In this document: piece by piece, positions 1-40,119 of the stretch
How the letters are laid out: every line of letters starts with the position of its first letter
How positions within the stretch are numbered: position 1 is the stretch's first letter
Virus record (IMG/VR): IMGVR_UViG_3300019132_000007
Span: 1 to 40,119 of that record
Strand: one strand, 5' to 3'
DNA: 40,119 nucleotides
Origin: a virus
Notes under the pieces: generated by a model
Database searches by the model: none
What the model saw: only the letters and a program-made list of their open reading frames with translations
Told to the model about the DNA's origin: nothing
Program-made: the position numbers and the translations under genes

Positions 1-99
1 ACGCGGGTTGGTCAACGGCGCTTGGCATCACGCCGACAGCCATAGCCAGCGCCACCATGCCGTCAATTCGTCCGGTCGCCTTGCCCTTCACAAACTTAC
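1..99. repeat. Terminal direct repeat copy A (identical to 40021-40119); circular-contig overlap
   Basis: Bases 1-99 match 40021-40119 base for base. The repeat lies inside the terL frame, which is continuous across the junction. Confidence 0.95.
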
Positions 100-1471
100 G
101 GTTCTCCGCCGGGTCCGTGACAACAGTTGCGTTTGCCGCGCACATCGTTAATACCGGATGATTCCCATGCCGAAGCTTTCTCGCTAGTAGCTTCGATTCC
201 AGTTCGCGGATCGCCGGCGACATGCTCACAAACCCCTGTCCGAACTCGACGAAACGTTCCAACTCTTCCTCGGTGAAGCCGACACGCTCTAACCAAGGCT
301 TCAGAAACTTCATGTTGTACCGGTCGAACGCGAGCGCTCGCACGTTATAGCGATCAAATACGTCCCGCAGATAGTGCGCGATGAACTCGTATTCGATCGA
401 TGCGCCTGGCGTCGTCTGCAAAAGCCCTTGCTGCGCCCATAGGTCGTACGGCACCCGGTCATTCCGCGCCTTTTCCGCCAGCCCTTCGGAGGGCAGCCAG
501 AAAGTCGGCAGGATGTCACCGGCCTCCTTCGCCAGCACCAGCGACGTCAAGTCCGACACGCTGGAAAGATCCAGCCCACCGAATACTTCGTCGCCGTCCT
601 CGATTTCAGGGTCGCTGCCGTTTTCCTGCCAGATCGTCCGCGTCACGAACGGATTTCGCGCTTCGACACGCTGATTCAGGATCAGGTTTCGGTAGCTAGC
701 TTCCCGGCTCGGCATCCGCTTGGCGTCGGACGCCTGGCGAAAGACCTCTTCCTTGTTCATGAAGTCGTCAAAGTGCGGGTTTGCCGCCCTGATCGCCTCT
801 TCGCTGAACGGGTCCAACTCCATCGGTGCCGTGCAGAGCTCCACCTTGATACGCGGGTCCGCGCCGGTCAGTCCGTCGTCAATCAACAGGCTGAGCAGAT
901 CGGCATCCGTTGGAGCCTGCGTAGAAATCACGATCGACAGCGGCGACTCCTGCGCAGCGGACGCTGTTTCCAGCGCTTCGTACAGCTCCGACCGCGGCCC
1001 TTTTACCTGCCCGAGTTCGTCATGCACCACAAACACTGGGCTCAGACCGTATGCAGTTGCCGCATCAGCGCTCAGCGCGCGGTACAAAGTCCCGAGTTCA
1101 GGGCAAAAAAGCTGCTTTGCCGTGTCCCGGATCGTCACGTATGCGGACAAATCGGGCGACATCCGCACCACTTTTGCGGCCAGAGCGAACAGAATCGATG
1201 CCTGCTCCCTCGATTGCGCTGCGCTATACAGCTGCGAATTCGGCTTTGCCTCCGGTCCGCACAGATGCAGCAGCAGAAGGAAGGACGAAAGCGCCGTCTT
1301 CGCGTTCTTCCGAGCCATCGACAGGATGAAAATCCGCGTCGGGCTGTCGTAAATGCGCCGGATCCATTCCTTTTGCTTCTTCGTCAGCTTGACCGGCTTG
1401 CCAACTAATCGACCTTCAGGAATCCGGCAGTTCGCCTCAATCCAGGCGATATTGCGCTCGCCGCGCGTCAT
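1..1471 (-). CDS. terL: Terminase large subunit (Terminase_1/HK97-type); runs off the window edge and finishes at 39986-40020 on the circle (501 aa total)
   Basis: My manual reverse translation from ATG 1471-1469 (TAATG overlap with the terS stop) met no stop codon down to base 1. It begins MTRGERNIAWIEANCRIPEGRLVGKPVKLTKKQKEWIRRIYD. It contains a VVHDELGQ Walker-B-like motif and a C-terminal nuclease-like GRIDGMVALAMA. It sits between terS and portal. Confidence 0.9.
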   Translation of the reverse strand, partial: MTRGERNIAWIEANCRIPEGRLVGKPVKLTKKQKEWIRRIYDSPTRIFILSMARKNAKTALSSFLLLLHLCGPEAKPNSQLYSAAQSREQASILFALAAKVVRMSPDLSAYVTIRDTAKQLFCPELGTLYRALSADAATAYGLSPVFVVHDELGQVKGPRSELYEALETASAAQESPLSIVISTQAPTDADLLSLLIDDGLTGADPRIKVELCTAPMELDPFSEEAIRAANPHFDDFMNKEEVFRQASDAKRMPSREASYRNLILNQRVEARNPFVTRTIWQENGSDPEIEDGDEVFGGLDLSSVSDLTSLVLAKEAGDILPTFWLPSEGLAEKARNDRVPYDLWAQQGLLQTTPGASIEYEFIAHYLRDVFDRYNVRALAFDRYNMKFLKPWLERVGFTEEELERFVEFGQGFVSMSPAIRELESKLLARKLRHGNHPVLTMCAANATVVTDPAENRKFVKGKATGRIDGMVALAMAVGVMPSAVDQPA

Positions 1472-1923
1472 TACTCGGCGTCGAGCGGGAGTTCCCACGG
1501 TTTCCTTGTCTTCGGCTGATTCTTCAGCGCCCGCCCCACAGTGGTCGGATGCTCAACTGCCTGCCTGGTGATGCGCAGCCGGGTCGCCAGCGACGATGCC
1601 GCACGGCTTTCCCGTTCCGCCATGGCCGTCAGTCGCTCCATGCGCTTCAGCCCCTCGGAGTCGCGCATCCAATTCGGATCGGATGCCTCAATCTCATCGT
1701 CGAGGATCCGCGCCTTGACTACGTGCTTGCAGTACAGCTCAAGCAAAGAAGCATGCGTTGCGGTGAACGCGCCGGCCGGTTGGTCATTGACCACTCTCAG
1801 CCATTCCTCCCGCACTGCGTCGTTCAGATATACGGGCGGTTGCAGCCTGTTTTCGGTAGAAATGGGCGCAACTAGGGCCGCGACCTCCATTGATGCGGTC
1901 GATTTTCTGCCCCTACTGCCCAT
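1471..1923 (-). CDS. terS: Terminase small subunit (P27 family-like)
   Basis: 150-aa ORF immediately upstream of terL and overlapping it. The sequence pattern (LNDAVREEWLRVVN...LLELYCKHVVKARIL) is typical of phage P27-family small terminases. Confidence 0.8.
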   Translation of the reverse strand: MGSRGRKSTASMEVAALVAPISTENRLQPPVYLNDAVREEWLRVVNDQPAGAFTATHASLLELYCKHVVKARILDDEIEASDPNWMRDSEGLKRMERLTAMAERESRAASSLATRLRITRQAVEHPTTVGRALKNQPKTRKPWELPLDAE

Positions 1924-2077
1924 TTTGTTGCTACCTATCTACTTTTTTTGTCCACGTTTATGAAAGAAAGGGGAACCGGTCGGTTTCCGGGGTAAAAGGC
2001 TCAGACTTTCGCCCCGCCCCTCCCGTTATCGATGCCTCTGCGGCCTACTAGAACGCGATAGGAGCGACGATTTCCGC
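1924..2077. other. Candidate cos/packaging-recognition region
   Basis: A 154-nt non-coding gap between the HNH and terS genes. HK97-like HNH-dependent cos phages place cos in this position. It contains a GGGGAACCGGTCGGTTTCCGGGG dyad-like element. No ends can be determined from sequence alone. Confidence 0.25.
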
Positions 2078-2368
2078 TCACCGAACATCACCCTCAACGG
2101 GCCACCCATCAGCCCCAATCGTCACCCTTGCTCGATGTCCCAAGTCCTGCCGTGTCTTCTCGTCGTGGCAGTCATCACACAGACCTTGTCTGTTCCGCCC
2201 TTCGTCCTCGTCGAAGTCCTTACCGCCATTGACCAATGCAACCTTGTGGTCTAGCTGCGTCGCCGCCCGGACGCGCCCCTTCTCCTGGCACTTGACGCAG
2301 AGCGGGTGAAGCCTGAAATGCTGTTCACGGATGCGTTGCAGCTTCCGACCTCTGATGCGCTCAGTCAT
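2078..2368 (-). CDS. HNH endonuclease (terminase-associated)
   Basis: Motifs HPLCVKCQEKGRV...LDHKVALVNGG...CDDCH. I prefer the internal ATG at 2368 (MTERIRGRKL) because the longer ORF would run through a terminator hairpin. The position upstream of terS/terL is typical. Confidence 0.85.
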   Translation of the reverse strand: MTERIRGRKLQRIREQHFRLHPLCVKCQEKGRVRAATQLDHKVALVNGGKDFDEDEGRNRQGLCDDCHDEKTRQDLGHRARVTIGADGWPVEGDVR

Positions 2369-2378
2369 CACTTCACCA

Positions 2379-2413
2379 ATAAAAAAGCCCGCTACCTGTT
2401 TTCGGTCGCGGGC
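2379..2413 (-). terminator. Intrinsic terminator (minus strand) just upstream of HNH
   Basis: Minus strand reads GCCCGC-GACCGAAAACAGGTA-GCGGGC followed by TTTTTTATT. Confidence 0.7.
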
Positions 2414-2484
2414 TAAGTCCAATCTTGCAAGGATAGAGACAAGTAAAGCCAACAAGTATTCATAAGCCACAATGCTTATATTAC

Positions 2485-2513
2485 TTGACAAACCTTATAT
2501 TTAGTCTTATAAT
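2485..2513 (+). promoter_or_regulatory. Perfect consensus sigma70 promoter of the toxin-antitoxin cassette
   Basis: TTGACA (2485-2490), 17-nt spacer, TATAAT (2508-2513). The toxin ATG at 2521 lies 7-8 nt after the -10, which implies a leaderless mRNA. Confidence 0.75.
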
Positions 2514-2520
2514 TCTCTAC

Positions 2521-2775
2521 ATGAACTCGATCAAATGGACACCGAAAGCAACCAAGCAAGTGCGCAAGCTCGACGCACAGTATGCTAAACAGATCGTTAC
2601 CGCCGTCCGCGAACTTGCTCAGATGCCGAACTGCCAGAACATCAAAGCCCTCACGAACCATGAATATGGATACAGGCTGCGAGTTGGTAACTACCGTGTC
2701 TTGTTTGACTGGGCCAGCGAAATCAAGATTGTCGAAATTCAAGAAGTGAGGAAGCGCGATGAACGCACCTACTAA
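2521..2775 (+). CDS. RelE/ParE-superfamily (HigB-like) toxin
   Basis: MNSIKWTPKATKQVRKLDAQYAKQIVTAVRELAQ...GYRLRVGNYRVLFDWASEIKIVEIQEVRKRDE. This is the classic RelE/ParE pattern. The region is low in GC. Confidence 0.8.
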   Translation: MNSIKWTPKATKQVRKLDAQYAKQIVTAVRELAQMPNCQNIKALTNHEYGYRLRVGNYRVLFDWASEIKIVEIQEVRKRDERTY

Positions 2776-3088
2776 CATCCAAGTAATCAACGGGCCGGAC
2801 GGGAAACCGGCCTTTGTCGTTATCCCTTATGCTGACTATGTGAAGCAGCATGAAGCGGAGAACGATCTAATCCCCCATGAGGTGGTGGAACGCATGGTCA
2901 TGGAGAACATGACGCCCGTTCGAGCCTGGCGCGAGCACCTGGGCATCACCCAAGAGGAAATGGCAAAACGCCTTGGCATTTCGCAGTCTGCCTACTCTCA
3001 GCAAGAAGCCGCGCCCAAGAATCGCAAGAGCACTCGCGAGAAGATCGCGGCAGCACTGGGCATCATGCCGGAACAGCTAGACGTCTGA
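2759..3088 (+). CDS. HTH (XRE-type) antitoxin, HigA-like
   Basis: Overlaps the toxin 3' end by 17 nt. HTH motif ITQEEMAKRLGISQSAYSQQE. The toxin-first gene order matches HigBA. Confidence 0.75.
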   Translation: MNAPTNIQVINGPDGKPAFVVIPYADYVKQHEAENDLIPHEVVERMVMENMTPVRAWREHLGITQEEMAKRLGISQSAYSQQEAAPKNRKSTREKIAAALGIMPEQLDV

Positions 3089-3221
3089 TTCCTTCAAGTA
3101 ACGTTTCTTGCACATTCCTCGGCTTTACGCTTCAGAATGCGCAACTTTCTGCACAGCAAATGTCAGCGCTGCCTCAGCTTCCAGCCGAGCCATTCGCGTA
3201 CTTGCTCGTTTGAGGGCGCGT

Positions 3222-3434
3222 TCATGCTGCCTCCCGAAAGGCCTTTTGGCGCTCGTTGTCGTGCTTCTCAAGCAGGTGCTGCTGAACTGGCGATAGCTCA
3301 AAGCCGAATAGCCGTTTGGCCTCCAGCCACTCCGGCGCGTCTCGCGAGTCTCGCACCTTGTAGCAGTTCTGCGGAAACGTGGTGTCGATCAACCACCGCC
3401 CGCCTTTTGTATGCTGCTGTAGGTAGAAGATCAT
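3222..3434 (-). CDS. Hypothetical protein (70 aa), first late-operon genes
   Basis: MIFYLQQHTKGGRWLIDTTF... The start overlaps the upstream stop (ATGA). Confidence 0.5.
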   Translation of the reverse strand: MIFYLQQHTKGGRWLIDTTFPQNCYKVRDSRDAPEWLEAKRLFGFELSPVQQHLLEKHDNERQKAFREAA

Positions 3435-3559
3435 CGCGCCACCTGCCGCCAGAAGTGATACAGCCACTCGGGGCTGTGATGCTCGGGGGTCTTGCGCTCC
3501 CGCTTTTCCAACAGCTTGAGCATTTCTTTGCGCTCGTGGCGCTTGGTCAGCTTCCGCAT
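3431..3559 (-). CDS. Hypothetical small basic protein (42 aa)
   Basis: MRKLTKRHERKEMLKLLEKRERKTPEHHSPEWLYHFWRQVAR. GGAGG lies 5 nt upstream of the ATG. Too short to appear in the ORF track. Confidence 0.45.
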   Translation of the reverse strand: MRKLTKRHERKEMLKLLEKRERKTPEHHSPEWLYHFWRQVAR

Positions 3560-3576
3560 ACAGCCTCCAGAAACGC

Positions 3577-3600
3577 AAAAACCCGCACAAGGCGGGTTTG
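3577..3600 (-). terminator. Intrinsic terminator in the late-promoter leader (tR'-like)
   Basis: Minus strand reads ACCCGC-CTTGT-GCGGGT followed by TTTTTGCGTTT, about 35-40 nt downstream of the predicted late transcription start. Confidence 0.7.
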
Positions 3601-3633
3601 GTGACAGTTATTGAAACTATCAAATTAGCGATG

Positions 3634-3663
3634 ATTTTAGGCGAAAGTGTAAGGGCATGTCCG
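3634..3663 (-). promoter_or_regulatory. Candidate Q-dependent late promoter (PR'-like)
   Basis: Minus strand reads CGGACA (3663-3658), 18 nt, TAAAAT (3639-3634). One arm of the 9-bp inverted repeat AGTGTAAGG/CCTTACACT (3646-3654 / 3686-3694) sits in the spacer, where the lambda Q-binding element lies. Confidence 0.45.
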
Positions 3664-3695
3664 CAAGTATTTTGTACGGTCACAGCCTTACACTC

Positions 3696-4103
3696 TCAGT
3701 CGATAATTTCGGCAGGCTCATCCGGCATCGCAGCAGGCGCGAGGTGTGCGCGCTTGAGGCTCTGCGACATCGAGTAGGCACGCTCGGCAAAGCGGCGCTT
3801 ACGCTCGTAGAACGTGACCCGGCTAATGCTCATCTCAGCCGCTACCTTCTTGATGTTGCGCGCGCGGTTCCAGTAATACTCGATGAAGCACGCGCCGTCT
3901 GCGTCATTCATGTCGACCAGGGCGTGGACTGCCATATTGAAAAAGCTCATCTCGTCCGACAGTATGGCATCCGGCCCCGGTCCCACTCTTGCGGGCTGCA
4001 TGCGAGCGAGTAAGTTTTTCGTCCCGGGCGCGAGGAAGTAGCGCCTAGTGATGCACCATTCGCGCCAAGCCTCGCAGTGCGCGTGAAGTTCTTGTCCGGT
4101 CAT
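3696..4103 (-). CDS. Late-gene antiterminator, Q family (Phage_antitermQ-like)
   Basis: 135 aa. The pattern W..W...Y..P...N.L plus a C-terminal sigma-region-4-like FIEYYWNRARNIKKVAAEMSISRVTFYERKRRFAERA. It is followed directly by a promoter and terminator. Confidence 0.65.
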   Translation of the reverse strand: MTGQELHAHCEAWREWCITRRYFLAPGTKNLLARMQPARVGPGPDAILSDEMSFFNMAVHALVDMNDADGACFIEYYWNRARNIKKVAAEMSISRVTFYERKRRFAERAYSMSQSLKRAHLAPAAMPDEPAEIID

Positions 4104-4288
4104 TTACCCTCCTTGGTTTCGTAATGCCTGCACCGCCGATCCGCCTTGCCGTTGCTGCGCTTCGGGCTGTTGCAGAAGTCGCGTCCGAGCACCTTGGTCT
4201 TATGAATGCAGCCGCGGCAAGTAAACCTTTCCTCGTACTCCATTACCTCGGCCGGATCCTTGTATCGGTATTGGCGCTGGATCGTCAT
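4100..4288 (-). CDS. Hypothetical Cys-rich protein (62 aa)
   Basis: MTIQRQYRYKDP...CRGCIHKTKVLGRDFCNSP...RRCRHYE. ATGA overlaps at both ends. Confidence 0.5.
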   Translation of the reverse strand: MTIQRQYRYKDPAEVMEYEERFTCRGCIHKTKVLGRDFCNSPKRSNGKADRRCRHYETKEGK

Positions 4289-5955: not shown

Positions 5956-6756
5956 TTACTTGACGTTGATGAACGGGATTGCACCGGCACTGGTCGTGGG
6001 CAGTTTGCCGTCCCACTTTTGAATGGCCTGCAGTTCGACGTACTCTTTGCCGCCCTGCTTTGCTACGGCCTCGGCCTTGATGCGAATCGCATCAGCCTCG
6101 CCCTGCGCCTCGGCGCGCTTGCGGTCAGCCTCCACCTTTGCCACCTCAAGGCGATTCTTTTCTTCCTGCAGCTTGAATTGCGCCTGAGCGGCCGCCTTGA
6201 TATTGGCCTCCAGCGCCGGATCAGTTACTAGGTTGCGGACGTTTGCGGAACGCACGAAGAACATGCCCTTACCGGCTTCAGCGTCGAGGTTCGCTTGCAA
6301 CTGCTTCACCGTGTCGGCCGCAATCTTGGTGCGCTCAGTGTGGACAGTGGCCGAGCCAAACTTGGAAGCGACGTCATAGACGACTTCGCGGGCCTGCCTG
6401 GTCACGTAGTTCATGCCGATGCGGGAGCAACCTTCCTTGTCCAGTTCGACAGCATCGCCCGGCCATTTGGTCAGGATGGTGGCGGCTTTCCCGGCATCGA
6501 TCTGCACATAAAGATCGATGTCCAAGTCCGAAAGCGTGATCTTGTCGCTTGTCTGCGGGCGGAGGTCGTTAATGGAGAGAGGAAGCTCCTTTGCGCACAC
6601 CTCGGTTACACGTTTGAACATCGTGAAGTACACGCCCGGCTGCATCGTTTCCGCCTTCACCTGGCCTAGCGTCGACTCAACACCGATGTTTCCAGTGTCA
6701 ATCTGCGTACAAGCAGACATCAAAACAACCATCACTCCCAAGAATATTTTTTTCAT
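5956..6756 (-). CDS. SPFH/band-7 (prohibitin/HflK-C-like) domain lipoprotein
   Basis: Signal peptide plus lipobox MKKIFLGVMVVLMSAC. The SPFH-like core is followed by an Ala/Glu/Lys-rich coiled coil (AAAQAQFKLQEEKNRLEVAKVEADRKRAEAQGEADAIRIKAEA). Confidence 0.7.
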   Translation of the reverse strand: MKKIFLGVMVVLMSACTQIDTGNIGVESTLGQVKAETMQPGVYFTMFKRVTEVCAKELPLSINDLRPQTSDKITLSDLDIDLYVQIDAGKAATILTKWPGDAVELDKEGCSRIGMNYVTRQAREVVYDVASKFGSATVHTERTKIAADTVKQLQANLDAEAGKGMFFVRSANVRNLVTDPALEANIKAAAQAQFKLQEEKNRLEVAKVEADRKRAEAQGEADAIRIKAEAVAKQGGKEYVELQAIQKWDGKLPTTSAGAIPFINVK

Positions 6757-6947
6757 ACGATCCTCATAGTGTTATTGAACAGCGCGAAAAACAGGCCAGC
6801 GGCCCCAAACGTTGAAACTGCCAGCGCGATTGCCAGCTCCTTGATGCCGAACCGGATCAGCTTCCGATCCTTTTTCTTCACGAACACCGTTCGCCACGAG
6901 ACGGTCACAGCAAACAGAATCACGAAAATCACAACAAACGCTTTCAT
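6753..6947 (-). CDS. Small two-TM membrane protein, partner of the SPFH gene
   Basis: MKAFVVIFVILFAVTVSW...LAIALAVSTFGAAGLFFALF. The stop overlaps the SPFH start (ATGA). Confidence 0.55.
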   Translation of the reverse strand: MKAFVVIFVILFAVTVSWRTVFVKKKDRKLIRFGIKELAIALAVSTFGAAGLFFALFNNTMRIV

Positions 6948-20563: not shown

Positions 20564-20752
20564 ATGAGCGCTATCGCACCAGGAAAACTGATACCGGTCA
20601 TTGAGTGGGCAAAGCAGAAGTTCGACTTGCGGATTCCGCATCCGAACACTCTGCGCCGCTGGATTCACGAAGGCCGGATCTACCCCAAAGCGACGAAAGT
20701 TGGTAAAAACTGGTTTGTGCCGGCCAATGCCGAATATCAGGGTGATGAATGA
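20564..20752 (+). CDS. xis: Excisionase (lambda Xis-like)
   Basis: 62 aa. LIPVIEWAKQKFDLRIPHPNTLRRWIHEGRIYPKATKVGKNWFV. The stop overlaps the int start. Confidence 0.7.
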   Translation: MSAIAPGKLIPVIEWAKQKFDLRIPHPNTLRRWIHEGRIYPKATKVGKNWFVPANAEYQGDE

Positions 20753-21849
20753 ACGCACGCAGACGCGATTCGAAGCGTAAGGGCTTCCCGCCGAACCTGT
20801 ACTGCAAGCCGGACGGCTATTTCTGGTACAGGAACCCGGAGAACGGGAAAACCAAGGGGCTTGGCCGCGACAGGCAGGACGCCTTCCGGCAGGCCCGCTT
20901 GGCAAATGCCGCCCTCGCCGCAGCTGGCGAACTGAATCTCGCGGATTGGGTAATGGGCAAGGACGGCAAGACCATGTCAGATTGGGCATTGGAGTACCAG
21001 GGCATTTACATTGACACGCGCGGCGCCGCCGCAAACACCATCGCAACGCTCAAGACCTGCATTCGAGCGATTCGCGCAGCAGAGTTTGCCAAGAAGCCGC
21101 TTGATCGCGTCACGACCAAGGATGTGTCCGAATTCCTTGATCACGCCACCGAGAACCGAGGCCCGAGGATGAGCGTGCAAATTCGCAGCTACCTTGAGGA
21201 TATGTTCCGGGAGGCAGCGACAAAGGGACTTGTGGATAGCAGCTTCAATCCTGTTACCGTCACACGCAAGGCTCAAGTCGAGGTTATGCGCGATCGACTA
21301 TCGCTAGAGCAGTTCCTGGCGATCCGGGCGCACGCAAAGGGCTGGCTGGCGAACGCAATGAACCTCGCACTTGTGTCTGCACAGCGCCGGGAAGACCTCG
21401 CCCTCGCTCGATTTTCCGACGTCAAAGACGGCTGCTGGTATGTTGAACAGGGCAAGACCGGGATGAAGATTCGAATTCACCTTACCCTGCGCCTCGCCGC
21501 GATTGGGCTGACCGTTGGCGATGTCATCAAGCAGTGCCGGGATAACGTGGTGAGCCAATACTTGATCCACCACCCGAAAAACACAACGCTGAGCAAGGCA
21601 GGCGATCCCGTCTGGAAAGACACCATCTCCAAGGGATTCGCCAAGGCCCGTACAAAGGCTGGCATCACCTGGCAGGAAGGAAAGGAGCCGCCGACCTTCC
21701 ATGAAATCCGCTCGCTGGCGGAACGCCTATACGAGAAGGAATATGGCCGGCCGTTCGCTCAGAAACTGCTCGGCCACAAGTCCGAAAAGATGACGTCGAT
21801 GTATGCGGATTCGCGCGGTTCCGACTGGCTAGATGTCGGGGTAGGTTGA
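20749..21849 (+). CDS. int: Tyrosine integrase (lambda Int-like, with an N-terminal arm-binding domain)
   Basis: N-terminus LYCKPDGYFWYRNPENGKTKGLG. Catalytic region RREDL...HEIRSLAERLY...LLGHKSEKMTSMY. Confidence 0.9.
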   Translation: MNARRRDSKRKGFPPNLYCKPDGYFWYRNPENGKTKGLGRDRQDAFRQARLANAALAAAGELNLADWVMGKDGKTMSDWALEYQGIYIDTRGAAANTIATLKTCIRAIRAAEFAKKPLDRVTTKDVSEFLDHATENRGPRMSVQIRSYLEDMFREAATKGLVDSSFNPVTVTRKAQVEVMRDRLSLEQFLAIRAHAKGWLANAMNLALVSAQRREDLALARFSDVKDGCWYVEQGKTGMKIRIHLTLRLAAIGLTVGDVIKQCRDNVVSQYLIHHPKNTTLSKAGDPVWKDTISKGFAKARTKAGITWQEGKEPPTFHEIRSLAERLYEKEYGRPFAQKLLGHKSEKMTSMYADSRGSDWLDVGVG

Positions 21850-23879: not shown

Positions 23880-24362
23880 TCATTCCTCCACATCGAAACA
23901 GCCGGAAGCCTTCACGATCGCTTGCAGCTCTTCTAAAGTTGCCTGATCTCTTCGGGCGATGGTGTAATTTCGTGCGGAGGTAATGGCAAGATGAGAAGCG
24001 GGGACGGGGACTGCAGAAGCCGTGCGGGAATCGTCAATTTTTTGGCCTGTGGCTGCGGCGTCGTGGAACACGCGGACAGAACCAGGCAACAGAGGCAAAG
24101 TTGAAGGCGCATATTGATCTCCCTTCGCAAGAGTGGATTGGTCGACATCGGCCTGCTTCTTGGCCCGGGCGGCGCCAGCGCGGTCGATCTTGTTGATGCG
24201 GGACTGTGCAAGTAGGCGGTTGTTCTCGGCCTGTTGCTCCAGCTGGAGCTTTTCGGCCTGCCACTCGGCGCGGATCTTGGTCTTGCCGAGGTCGTAGGCT
24301 TTCCAATGGGTGCCGGCCAGAGCAACCAGGACGACCGCAGCGGCTGCGAGTTTGAGATTCAT
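23880..24362 (-). CDS. i-spanin (Rz-like)
   Basis: N-terminal TM MNLKLAAAAVVLVALAG followed by a coiled coil. ATGA overlap with the endolysin stop. Confidence 0.75.
   Translation of the reverse strand: MNLKLAAAAVVLVALAGTHWKAYDLGKTKIRAEWQAEKLQLEQQAENNRLLAQSRINKIDRAGAARAKKQADVDQSTLAKGDQYAPSTLPLLPGSVRVFHDAAATGQKIDDSRTASAVPVPASHLAITSARNYTIARRDQATLEELQAIVKASGCFDVEE
23933..24112 (-). CDS. o-spanin (Rz1-like) lipoprotein embedded in Rz in a different frame
   Basis: MRLQLCLCCLVLSAC has a lipobox and is followed by a proline-rich mature part. It lies entirely inside the Rz ORF. Confidence 0.7.
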   Translation of the reverse strand: MRLQLCLCCLVLSACSTTPQPQAKKLTIPARLLQSPSPLLILPLPPHEITPSPEEIRQL

Positions 24363-24841
24363 TGCGACCTCCCGAGACATTGATCCCGCTCCCGCAAGCG
24401 GCGCGCGTGCAGGCCGGAGATGAACTTGCCCTGAAAGTGAGACCACGCCGGCCGTCCATCCGAGTGATAAGCCAGTCCATTGCAGGCCCCCTCGTAATCC
24501 CCGGCATTCAGCTTTTTCACGAACCCGGCATTGCAGAACGCATCCACACCCAAGTTATAGGCGAACGACACATAGGCGTCGAACTCATGCTGATAGAGCG
24601 GGACTTTGACACACCGTTGAACGCCCTTTTCGTACTTGCTCGAGTCGTTCAGCAGTCGGACCAGGGCGCGAACCGGCGTCGTCGTCTCCCCTGCCCTGAC
24701 GTTCTCGGTAGCACCGAATCCGAGCGTAGGCTTATCACCAGGGAGAGGCGGTCGGGCCACAGGCTCATACCCTTCGCTCACCGCAAGCCCGACCAGCGCT
24801 GCCGCTGACAGCGACAGTGCCGCTACTTTCACCCTGCTCAT
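24359..24841 (-). CDS. SAR endolysin (GH24 lysozyme)
   Basis: N-terminal weakly hydrophobic SAR VAALSLSAAALVGLAV. E-8aa-D-5aa-T-like EGYEPVARPPLPGDKPTLGFGAT. FDAYVSFAYNLG. Confidence 0.8.
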   Translation of the reverse strand: MSRVKVAALSLSAAALVGLAVSEGYEPVARPPLPGDKPTLGFGATENVRAGETTTPVRALVRLLNDSSKYEKGVQRCVKVPLYQHEFDAYVSFAYNLGVDAFCNAGFVKKLNAGDYEGACNGLAYHSDGRPAWSHFQGKFISGLHARRLRERDQCLGRSQ

Positions 24842-25023
24842 TTCTTCCCACGCTTTTTCAGCTCATTACGAATCAAGAAGAACGCCTGAAGAGCCAGATA
24901 GGCTAATGTCGCAATGGCCACCCAATCGTTCAGCGTCAAATCAAGAAAGACGCTCGACCCCGTGACGGCAACAGGAGGCGCAGCCTTCGCCGCCGCAGTG
25001 GACAATTCTTCTTTCATCTTCAT
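24838..25023 (-). CDS. Holin (probable pinholin) with a dual-start MKM motif
   Basis: 61 aa. An MKMKEE dual start, a weak TMD1 AAPPVAVTGSSVFL and a strong TMD2 WVAIATLAYLALQAFFLI. Basic C-terminus KKRGKK. The stop overlaps the endolysin start. Confidence 0.7.
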   Translation of the reverse strand: MKMKEELSTAAAKAAPPVAVTGSSVFLDLTLNDWVAIATLAYLALQAFFLIRNELKKRGKK

Positions 25024-39985: not shown

Positions 39986-40119
39986 TTAAATCATTCTGAT
40001 GCCGCGCGTCTCGTAGACGGACGCGGGTTGGTCAACGGCGCTTGGCATCACGCCGACAGCCATAGCCAGCGCCACCATGCCGTCAATTCGTCCGGTCGCC
40101 TTGCCCTTCACAAACTTAC
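39986..40119 (-). CDS. terL: 3' end of terL (39986-40020 is unique sequence; 40021-40119 duplicates 1-99)
   Basis: The frame from base 1 continues as ...VMPSAVDQPASVYETRGIRMI-TAA, with the stop at 39988-39986. Total length is 1506 nt, or 502 codons. Confidence 0.85.
   Translation of the reverse strand, partial: KFVKGKATGRIDGMVALAMAVGVMPSAVDQPASVYETRGIRMI
40021..40119. repeat. Terminal direct repeat copy B (identical to 1-99)
   Basis: Identical to bases 1-99. Confidence 0.95.

Follow-up and report, generated by a model that had tools for sequence, protein, structure and literature searches.

A putative mobile toxin-antitoxin cassette with a predicted leaderless, promoter-abutting toxin gene lies antisense in the late leader of a temperate phage

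The closest described relatives of the toxin-antitoxin cassette treated here are found in two annotated phages, the Burkholderia phage AP3 (gp1/gp2, KP966108) and the Pseudomonas phage LESphi2 (P21_29/P21_30, OQ594955). The cassette itself is part of the viral sequence IMGVR_UViG_3300019132_000007, of which positions 1 to 40,119 were analysed as one stretch (the window), and it consists of a promoter, a toxin gene of the RelE/ParE superfamily, and a gene for an XRE-type antitoxin with a helix-turn-helix (HTH) domain. The DNA of the AP3 cassette is 72% identical over exactly promoter, toxin, and antitoxin, with a toxin of 73% identity, and in LESphi2 the corresponding values are 69% for the DNA and 63% for the toxin. 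In blastn, the match to these annotated phages is limited to positions 2484-3088, and it is seen in the 'distant' mode only, a megablast of 1400-4200 against phages having given no match. Like in the window, the annotated promoter of AP3 ends 7 nt before the ATG, but AP3 is a P2-like phage in which the cassette lies near cosL, with an annotated bidirectional terminator behind it. LESphi2 differs by a second, Shine-Dalgarno-bearing start 18 nt further downstream and by a Q protein that is unrelated to the Q-like protein of the window. An experimental study of either cassette was not found in the literature searched, and a leaderless, toxin-first RelE/XRE family is not described in the papers that were found.

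Among the well-known modules, HigBA shares with the cassette the toxin-first order, a toxin of the RelE superfamily, and an XRE/Cro-type HTH antitoxin that would autoregulate the promoter. A sequence-only reading of the window had called the cassette HigBA-like, which holds for the gene order and the two protein classes but not for the toxin family, as no HigB model is matched by the toxin in a Pfam scan at E <= 0.1, which gave PF05016 and a sub-threshold PF15781 only. The cassette further differs from HigBA in that the HTH domain of the antitoxin is C-terminal, following a 50-residue N-terminal part, in that no second promoter for the antitoxin alone was found, and in that the toxin start abuts the promoter. 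With RelBE of E. coli, the cassette shares the toxin superfamily, including basic residues and a C-terminal Tyr at or near the positions of RelE K54, R56, R61, K80-R81, and Y87, but the relation is very distant (E 0.2-0.9 by sequence), the gene order is reversed, RelB is a ribbon-helix-helix protein whereas the antitoxin of the window is of the XRE-HTH type, and the toxin has no equivalent of RelE K52 and contains an invariant His47. With regard to its position, the cassette is most reminiscent of bor of phage lambda, a gene with its own promoter that likewise opposes a Q-dependent late unit and is located shortly before the packaging genes. Together with lambdap78, it occupies the interval from Rz to cos in antisense direction, and bor is expressed in the lysogen. 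Its product, however, is an outer-membrane lipoprotein and not a toxin-antitoxin pair, and it has no leaderless start. Leaderless first genes are known from other toxin-antitoxin operons: of the 37 M. tuberculosis modules for which a primary start site has been mapped, 32 are leaderless (PMC3898074), and paaR2 of the paaR2-paaA2-parE2 operon, encoded on the cryptic prophage CP-933P of E. coli O157:H7, has been found to be leaderless by rapid amplification of cDNA ends (5'-RACE) and N-terminal sequencing (PMC8630535). The cassette would share with these systems that the first gene of the operon is transcribed from its own start codon, but the leaderless gene of the paaR2 operon encodes a regulator, whereas in the window it would be the toxin gene, and this in a proteobacterial family. 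Leaderless mRNAs also occur in Burkholderia (PMC4603805).

The locus is probably best explained by an autonomous type II toxin-antitoxin moron, which belongs to a family that is common in chromosomes, plasmids, and prophages of Burkholderiales, and which in this phage sits in the late leader, a stretch that is untranslated or encodes small ORFs, against the direction of late transcription. The conserved unit comprises about 620 bp (approximately 2462-3091) with promoter/operator, toxin gene, and antitoxin gene. In more than 60 loci, the DNA similarity as detected by blastn begins at 2462-2522 and ends at 3063-3096, with the unit stopping at the antitoxin stop codon, and the toxin-antitoxin pair is kept together in all of these loci. 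A scan of viral contigs contributed 40 family loci and a scan of one genome per species contributed 47, the hosts being mostly Burkholderiales (Paraburkholderia, Caballeronia, Cupriavidus, Collimonas, Ralstonia, Achromobacter, Bordetella), and there are further loci on one Burkholderia plasmid and in some metagenome-assembled genomes of Desulfobacterales. The toxin of the window is 60-79% identical to its nearest relatives. An empty site is provided by a related phage contig (L092; its homologue of the Q-like protein is 84% identical, its late leader 82%), which has Q, promoter, a first terminator (T1), an open reading frame (ORF) of 46 aa, a second terminator (T2), and the HNH endonuclease gene in this order, without the cassette. 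In the relative L001, which likewise lacks the cassette, T1 is followed by a small ORF, and a second terminator then precedes orf67, terS, and terL. The genome has a GC content of 56.8%, in comparison to 50.8% in the cassette, 49.4% in the toxin gene, and 31.8% in the promoter region, and across 2300-2900 the GC content drops to 41-51%. By these comparisons, the cassette is a low-GC mobile insertion, antisense within what appears to be the late transcription unit. The sequence-only reading had already proposed such an insertion, which is borne out by the empty site and by the confinement of homology to the conserved unit, and promoter, toxin, antitoxin, terminators, and low GC were all found where it had placed them. 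Typical traits of morons in the sense of Hendrix and Juhala are present with the patchy occurrence at an intergenic position, an own promoter (at the sequence level), and the deviant GC content, but an own terminator is not: there is no plus-strand terminator within or after the cassette, and the predicted folding of 3089-3221 does not surpass that of shuffled sequences (z = +0.29).

Profile searches agree with the RelE/ParE toxin and XRE antitoxin that had been recognized from the sequence alone. The toxin matches the Pfam model PF05016 (ParE_toxin) with residues 4-81 of 84 (E 3.8e-9, 37.4 bits at a cut-off of 23) and the 'RelE-like toxin' PHROG 1213 with 2e-21, and it matches ParE-like_toxin PF15781 below threshold (14.5 bits, cut-off 28). 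In an alignment of 66 members with E. coli RelE, the residues R52, R54, R59, and K78-R79 are conserved to at least 97% and are found opposite K54, R56, R61, and K80-R81 of RelE, and H47 and the C-terminal Y84 are invariant in the family. Sequence and profile searches of the PDB resulted in weak matches to RelE-type chains only, which are E. coli RelE on the ribosome, RelE3 of M. jannaschii, and aRelE of P. horikoshii, without any ParE chain; a close relative of toxin or antitoxin with a solved structure was not found in the PDB searches. Since the RelE-type residues are conserved and the PDB matches are of the RelE type only, this comparison favours an enzyme that, like RelE, cleaves mRNA on the ribosome, and speaks less for a gyrase poison of the ParE type. 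The N-terminus of the toxin, M-N-x-I-x-W, is near-invariant in the family. An ORF of 104 aa in antisense direction (2476..2790) was taken as a shadow ORF of the toxin gene.

In the antitoxin, the HTH_3 model is matched at residues 54-107 (2e-9), HTH_19 and HTH_31 match as well, and PHROG 7241 covers the protein from end to end (1e-33). In the AF2 model (pLDDT 82), a beta-hairpin and two helices, predicted with moderate confidence, make up the N-terminal part, and a domain of the Cro/cI type with five helices comes after them. Foldseek and PDB matches are to HTH domains of the 434/P22 type only, the best relatives being of the 434 repressor/Cro type, and for the N-terminal part, the likely toxin-binding region, Foldseek gave no convincing structural relative. 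Antitoxin homologues form 942 clusters at 90% identity, and their names are generic throughout, for example 'XRE family regulator', with none being named antitoxin. The ATG of the antitoxin is preceded by AGGA/GAGG at a distance of 6-11 nt, within the conserved C-terminal codons of the toxin, and the dual-coding overlap of 17 nt is almost invariant among relatives. A hairpin of GGCCGG/CCGGCC with a T-rich run on the plus strand (2792-2813), 35 nt into the antitoxin ORF, was dismissed as a coding coincidence; it falls on the GC-rich codons of the conserved GPDGxPAF motif, and although close relatives have it, distant members have not maintained it.

The promoter of the cassette, with TTGACA, a 17-nt spacer, and TATAAT, agrees with the consensus in 12 of 12 positions, and the description as a textbook promoter is thus fully justified; it is the sole site within one mismatch of the consensus on both strands of the 40 kb, where shuffles let expect 0.05. 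The terminal C of the discriminator TCTCTAC directly abuts the toxin ATG. Copies of the motif CTTATA(T/A)T are found at 2475-2482, 2494-2501, and 2506-2513, and an inverted ATAAGC is found at 2462-2467. The 7-mer that overlaps the -10 box (TCTTATA in the window) is repeated 11-12 nt upstream, which is one helical turn, in 53 of 63 loci. The variants CTTATA, GCTATA, and GTTATA covary between the copies across loci, and a third copy about 30-34 nt upstream is direct in loci of the CTTATA type and inverted in loci of the GCTATA type. These repeats on the -10 box, in the spacer, and at the flank of the -35 box are a probable autoregulatory operator that may coevolve with the HTH antitoxin. As the covarying repeats look like such an operator, the promoter would normally be repressed, and it is thus doubtful whether the cassette is strongly transcribed, as the sequence-only reading had it: the repeats overlap the -10 box and the spacer as they do in autorepressed operators.

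The toxin ATG follows the -10 box after 7 nt, as had been noted before, and a Shine-Dalgarno motif is absent upstream. That this is not a peculiarity of one phage is evident from a survey of the 100 nt upstream of the codon that aligns with Met1 in each locus, which covered 76 distinct sequences with a protein identity of 48-100%. In 62 of these 76 loci, a distance of 6-8 nt separates the start codon from the end of the best sigma-70-like promoter (6 nt in 23 loci, 7 nt in 36, 8 nt in 3), with a chance level for this spacing of about 5 loci in the scan range of 42 positions, and the Shine-Dalgarno motif is absent in 73 of 76. The exceptions have gained a short leader. The start codon is preceded by a pyrimidine in 60 of 63 loci, which is C in 56 of them; RNA polymerase prefers a pyrimidine/purine pair at -1/+1. 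ATG is the start codon in 53 of the 63 loci, and GTG or TTG in 9. From the spacing, the toxin is predicted to be translated from a leaderless mRNA with a leader of 0-2 nt. The layout had been called unusual, and it is so in comparison with textbook toxin-antitoxin operons, whereas it is the rule within its own family. In ten distant loci (L069, L071, L075-L080, L082, and L089), the GTG/TTG starts go along with TATCAT/TATGAT boxes at -10 and a palindrome ATACGTAT in the spacer. In LESphi2 (L003, 2878-2907), the in-frame ATG 7 nt past TATAAT is kept, CCATGAAC is duplicated, GAGG is added, and the second start follows 18 nt downstream, which looks like a leaderless start that has been turned into a leadered one through a short duplication.

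The surroundings of the cassette are those of a late transcription unit (Table 1). An exact terminal direct repeat of 99 nt (1-99 and 40021-40119) identifies the window as the circular assembly of a genome of 40,020 bp, terL spans the junction, and the phage is temperate and of the siphovirus type. All late genes are in a single long run on the minus strand, beginning with HNH, terS, and terL, continuing with head and tail genes, and ending with holin and endolysin. Upstream of the late leader there is a gene for a 135-aa protein, which has no Pfam, PHROG, or NCBIfam family and no BLASTP similarity to the Q protein of LESphi2. Its 17 homologues are all unnamed and are always encoded by the last gene ahead of packaging or late genes. 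The top three PDB matches that Foldseek found with its AF2 model (pLDDT 78) are all Q21, with probabilities of 0.84-0.97, TM-scores of 0.50-0.55, and weak E values of 0.3-1.2. The protein is thus plausibly an antiterminator of the Q21 type, and it may represent an undescribed Q21-like family in phages of the Burkholderiales type.

Table 1. Features of the window and its late transcription unit; coordinates are those of the window, and descending coordinates indicate the minus strand where so given.
Feature	Position	Strand	Remarks
Cassette promoter/operator region	2462..2520	+	-35 TTGACA 2485-2490; -10 TATAAT 2508-2513
Toxin gene, 84 aa, RelE/ParE superfamily	2521..2775	+	PF05016; PHROG 1213
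Antitoxin gene, 109 aa	2759..3088	+	HTH_3 2e-9; PHROG 7241 1e-33; 17-nt overlap with toxin gene
Candidate late-gene regulator, 135 aa	3696..4103	-	Q21-like fold (AF2 and Foldseek)
Late promoter region	3600..3700	-	-10 TAAAAT 3639..3634; weak -35 3663..3658; 9/12 match
T1, promoter-proximal intrinsic terminator	3599..3579	-	8-bp stem, then UUUUUGCGUUU; kept in L092, L001, L094, L095
orf42, first ORF past T1	3431..3559	-	GGAGG 5 nt upstream
orf70, small late-leader ORF	3222..3434	-	ORF list; ATGA overlap couples orf70 to orf42
T2, intrinsic terminator just upstream of HNH	2413..2379	-	-18.5 kcal/mol, z = -3.1; U6 tail, UUUUUUAUU
HNH endonuclease	2371..2078	-	Pfam HNH 2e-6; PHROG 2323
terS	1923..1471	-	PHROG 12559 terS 1e-47
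terL	1470..1, runs on across circular junction	-	packaging gene, downstream in late direction
Holin	25023..24838	-	far end of late strand
Endolysin	24841..24359	-	far end of late strand
Integrase	20749-21849	+	CII-like regulator and DnaD-like loader close by

The late promoter and the leader are conserved in four other phages that have a homologue of the upstream 135-aa gene. The non-coding DNA of the late leader is 80-82% identical to that of L091-L093 and L001, with the flanking coding DNA being more diverged, and an alignment of five phages (the window, L092, L001, L094, and L095) has the TAAAAT box at -10, an inverted repeat, the element GATAGTyT, and T1 in common. In the first transcribed region (3600-3633, minus strand), 10-25 nt past the -10 box, TAATTT and GATAGTyT, of which TAGTyT fits TAnnnT, are invariant in these five phages, and there is a small conserved hairpin GATAGTTTCAATAACTGTC before T1. 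The elements at 3600-3633 resemble the sigma-dependent pause elements that serve for Q loading in lambdoid phages. The Q-dependent late promoter that had been predicted is a candidate that agrees with the consensus in only 9 of 12 positions, although promoter, leader, and T1 are conserved in five phages, and the Q fold match is weak. The inverted repeat lies just past the stop codon of the Q-like gene (3640-3700, minus strand; 2655-2715 in L092, 6392-6450 in L001, and also in L094 and L095) and surrounds CAAAATA, which is invariant. While the outer bases of the repeat, AGTGT...ACACT, do not change, the 4-5 inner ones vary among the phages but stay complementary (TAAGG/CCTTA, CGGAG/CTCCG, ACGGA/TCCGT, CCCAT/ATGGG). 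The repeat and the -35 region of the late promoter overlap. Either a binding element of the Q-like protein or an RNA stem that closes the early transcript at its 3' end may be seen in this repeat.

Both terminators of the leader, T1 and T2, fold significantly better than shuffles, although T2 was missed by a simple terminator scanner due to an internal mismatch in the stem. Equivalents of T2 are found in relatives without the cassette, namely before HNH in L092 and before orf67/terS in L001, whereas in L027, L033, L045, and L072 the late strand has no such terminator next to the cassette. For these reasons T2 was rejected as a part of the cassette and assigned to the phage backbone; the terminator that the sequence-only reading had seen between cassette and packaging genes does exist, but it is not a consequence of the insertion. 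As the lysis genes end the same strand, and as no other promoter-like site was found on the minus strand between the cassette and HNH, late transcription very probably crosses the cassette in antisense direction, and the head-on course that had been suggested is thus upheld. The two small ORFs of the leader, orf70 and orf42, have no family match in Pfam, PHROG, or NCBIfam.

The small late ORFs and T2 enclose the antisense cassette of the window, and a similar placement recurs in other phages. In all 19 loci with a detectable terL, this gene is on the strand opposite to the cassette and precedes the toxin start by 0.5-2.6 kb, and these loci span at least three terL PHROG families (38, 9, and 2). 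HNH genes adjoin the cassette in L027, L033, L045, and L072, and five contigs (L026, L028, L031, L034, L039) have homologues of orf70, with 37-39% identity, on that side of the cassette which faces the terminase genes, for which reason the insertion slot within the late leader must vary. Beyond the antitoxin, the cassette is followed by opposite-strand genes in about half of the phage loci, where it is thus embedded, and by co-directional genes in the rest. In LESphi2, the antisense cassette has the Q gene on one side and tRNA-Met/holin on the other and is flanked by two terminators of the late strand, and in AP3 and similar P2-like phages it is co-directional with the terminase and portal genes and downstream of them.

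Taken as an autonomous moron, the cassette may function in the following way. The consensus sigma-70 promoter would start transcription at the toxin AUG or 1-2 nt before it, and the toxin would be made from a leaderless mRNA. Leaderless mRNAs are generally poorly translated by proteobacterial ribosomes. Initiation of the antitoxin would take place inside the 3' end of the toxin gene, Shine-Dalgarno-assisted or coupled, and may thereby lead to an excess of antitoxin. A weak leaderless toxin in combination with a Shine-Dalgarno-led antitoxin is proposed to solve the stoichiometry problem of a toxin-first operon. The C-terminal Cro/cI-type HTH domain of the antitoxin would probably bind the CTTATA-type repeats and repress the promoter, as the covarying repeats suggest, and the steady-state transcription of the cassette in a lysogen would be low owing to this autorepression. 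The toxin, if released, would act as a RelE-like ribosome-dependent mRNA endonuclease, to which the conserved residues point. By analogy, the benefit for the phage of such cargo expressed in the lysogen could be addiction and thus prophage stabilisation, and/or a defence of the abortive-infection type. In lytic growth, a polymerase modified by the Q21-like protein would start at 3663..3634, pass T1, orf42-orf70, the cassette, and T2, and transcribe HNH-terS-terL and then the genes for head, tail, and lysis. Purifying selection is probably the best explanation of the antisense orientation, as a promoter that is active in the lysogen then cannot drive HNH and terminase, and a silencing of the cassette by late transcription would be a by-product. 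The cassette, be it selfish or beneficial, would thus land in a permissive region, the late leader or the surroundings of cos, and survive in one orientation only.

Several aspects weigh against this explanation or parts of it. The leaderless start is predicted from spacing alone, and nine or more members have GTG or TTG at the leaderless position. Non-AUG leaderless initiation is thought to be very inefficient in E. coli, and these members thus either have a very low translation of the toxin or follow another rule in their hosts. A leader with a Shine-Dalgarno motif has been gained in L003 (LESphi2), L072, and L081, and because of these three the translational handicap of the toxin cannot be obligatory. 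On the side of the antitoxin, an internal promoter was looked for in the cassette and none was found, the Shine-Dalgarno-like run is variable among members, and the antitoxin excess is deduced. With regard to the toxin, RelE K52 faces a Gly in the alignment, and Y84 matches RelE Y87 only after a shift by one residue. The Q assignment leans on a structural match with E values of 0.3-1.2, and the 19 loci with terL are not all independent of each other, as some are near-duplicates. No transcript, protein, or toxicity data for any family member were found in the literature, and the AP3 paper merely names the gene (PMC5247547). The supplement of a differential RNA-seq study of B. cenocepacia J2315 was searched for a family member with a mapped start, but no homologue was recognisable.

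The orientation could also be adaptive, in that the cassette and the late operon form a head-on switch: cassette transcription in the lysogen would, together with T2, keep the packaging genes off, and upon induction late transcription by Q-modified polymerases would occlude the cassette promoter, produce antisense RNA, bring antitoxin synthesis to an end, and release the RelE-like toxin late, be it in order to shut down host translation or to time lysis, or alternatively the toxin-antitoxin unit would throttle late expression. Such a switch would make sense of the invariant orientation relative to terL (19/19 loci), of the same Q-side geometry in LESphi2, and of the fact that roughly every second phage locus has the cassette embedded among genes of the opposite strand, and without a plus-strand terminator after the antitoxin the two units would indeed converge over orf70 and orf42. 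It is nevertheless unlikely, because the operator repeats on the promoter argue for an autorepression to low activity, because the same cassette with the same promoter occurs in chromosomes, on a plasmid, and in co-directional P2-like phages such as AP3, so that its design is not specific for head-on positions, and because the genes past the antitoxin are co-directional with it in the other half of the phage loci. A released toxin would moreover strike the late mRNAs of the phage itself. The orientation bias is equally predicted by a counter-selection of lysogen-active promoters that face HNH and terminase, and bor of lambda shows that antisense morons need no regulatory role. For the proposal of the sequence-only reading that the geometry could gate the expression of the packaging genes, the analysis gave no support; the antisense placement by the terminase is a recurrent one and has a precedent in bor. 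A combined version, in which a family-wide translational throttle with the toxin AUG/GUG as transcription start and the operator in the -10 box is joined to an orientation-locked switch for toxin release in the lytic phase, appears just as unlikely.

The other alternatives concern the cassette itself. A toxin of the ParE type, a gyrase poison instead of an mRNA endonuclease, is suggested by the name of the best Pfam model (ParE_toxin, PF05016) and by the weak sub-threshold match to PF15781, and PF05016 takes in both RelE and ParE proteins. The positions of R52, R54, R59, and K78-R79 opposite the RelE residues K54, R56, R61, and K80-R81, however, the C-terminal Tyr as a plausible counterpart of Y87, the PDB matches that are all RelE and none ParE, and the annotations by PHROG and by depositors, which read RelE-like, together make a gyrase poison improbable. 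A similarly low probability is given to a toxin mRNA with a leader, in which case the hexamers would be mainly operator, or transcription would start further upstream with a Shine-Dalgarno-independent internal initiation, or another start codon would be used. Indeed, the operator motif with its repeats includes the -10 box, initiation at an in-frame TTG (2485) would result in an ORF of 96 aa, and some relatives have longer leaders. This TTG, however, is the -35 box, and the extra residues are not conserved, whereas M-N-x-I-x-W is near-invariant. Also the 6-8 nt spacing, the -35 box at 16-18 nt, the lack of a Shine-Dalgarno motif, and the pyrimidine/purine dinucleotide are conserved while the sequences further upstream are unrelated, and LESphi2 has retained its in-frame ATG exactly at the leaderless position despite the added second ATG. 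A passenger without activity, in which an addiction module is decaying and has no present function, would be compatible with the absence of functional data and with a toxin that is just 60-79% identical to its nearest relatives, but it is very improbable for a cassette in which both ORFs are intact and of full length, every family-invariant residue of toxin and antitoxin is present, the consensus promoter is perfect, the repeats are intact, and the 17-nt dual-coding overlap is conserved. The autonomous moron is thus the preferred explanation.

As toxin-antitoxin pairs are common in prophages, the cassette alone adds little, and the points of interest are comparative. They are the promoter-fused, apparently leaderless toxin-first layout with its covarying operator, the orientation-locked hot spot at the terminase, and the probable Q21-like regulator with its conserved leader. 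What emerges is a large RelE/XRE family that is uncharacterised and structurally unsolved but has an unusually legible regulatory architecture, and if the layout is confirmed, a leaderless toxin with a Shine-Dalgarno-led antitoxin would be a design rule for toxin-first operons. Should the throttle be real, a toxin capped by leaderless initiation next to a Shine-Dalgarno-led antitoxin would be a general answer to the toxin-first stoichiometry. Should the switch be real, lambdoid or HK97-like phages would retain one orientation by the terminase, and Q-driven transcription would collide with and silence a lysogen-maintenance module. The series of cassettes, which recur antisense next to unrelated terminase genes, with its empty-site, leadered, and co-directional variants is in any case a natural experiment on transcriptional collisions in phage late operons.

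A transposition or site-specific signature was considered and rejected: the CAAGTAA repeat that flanks the cassette (2440-2446 and 3095-3101) is at chance level (p ~0.22), and over 75 loci flanking direct repeats are not general. Only four loci (L004, L067, L031, and L074) have direct repeats of 10-12 nt around the cassette, such as GGCGGGCGCGCA in L004, and these may be traces of illegitimate recombination. PADLOC defence models gave nothing meaningful on the window. In the early/replication region, a gene for a lipoprotein of 266 aa (PHROG 200), preceded by a hydrophobic ORF of 64 aa, is found on the minus strand at 5956-6947 in DNA of 48-49% GC, and this stretch may be a second moron of the phage.

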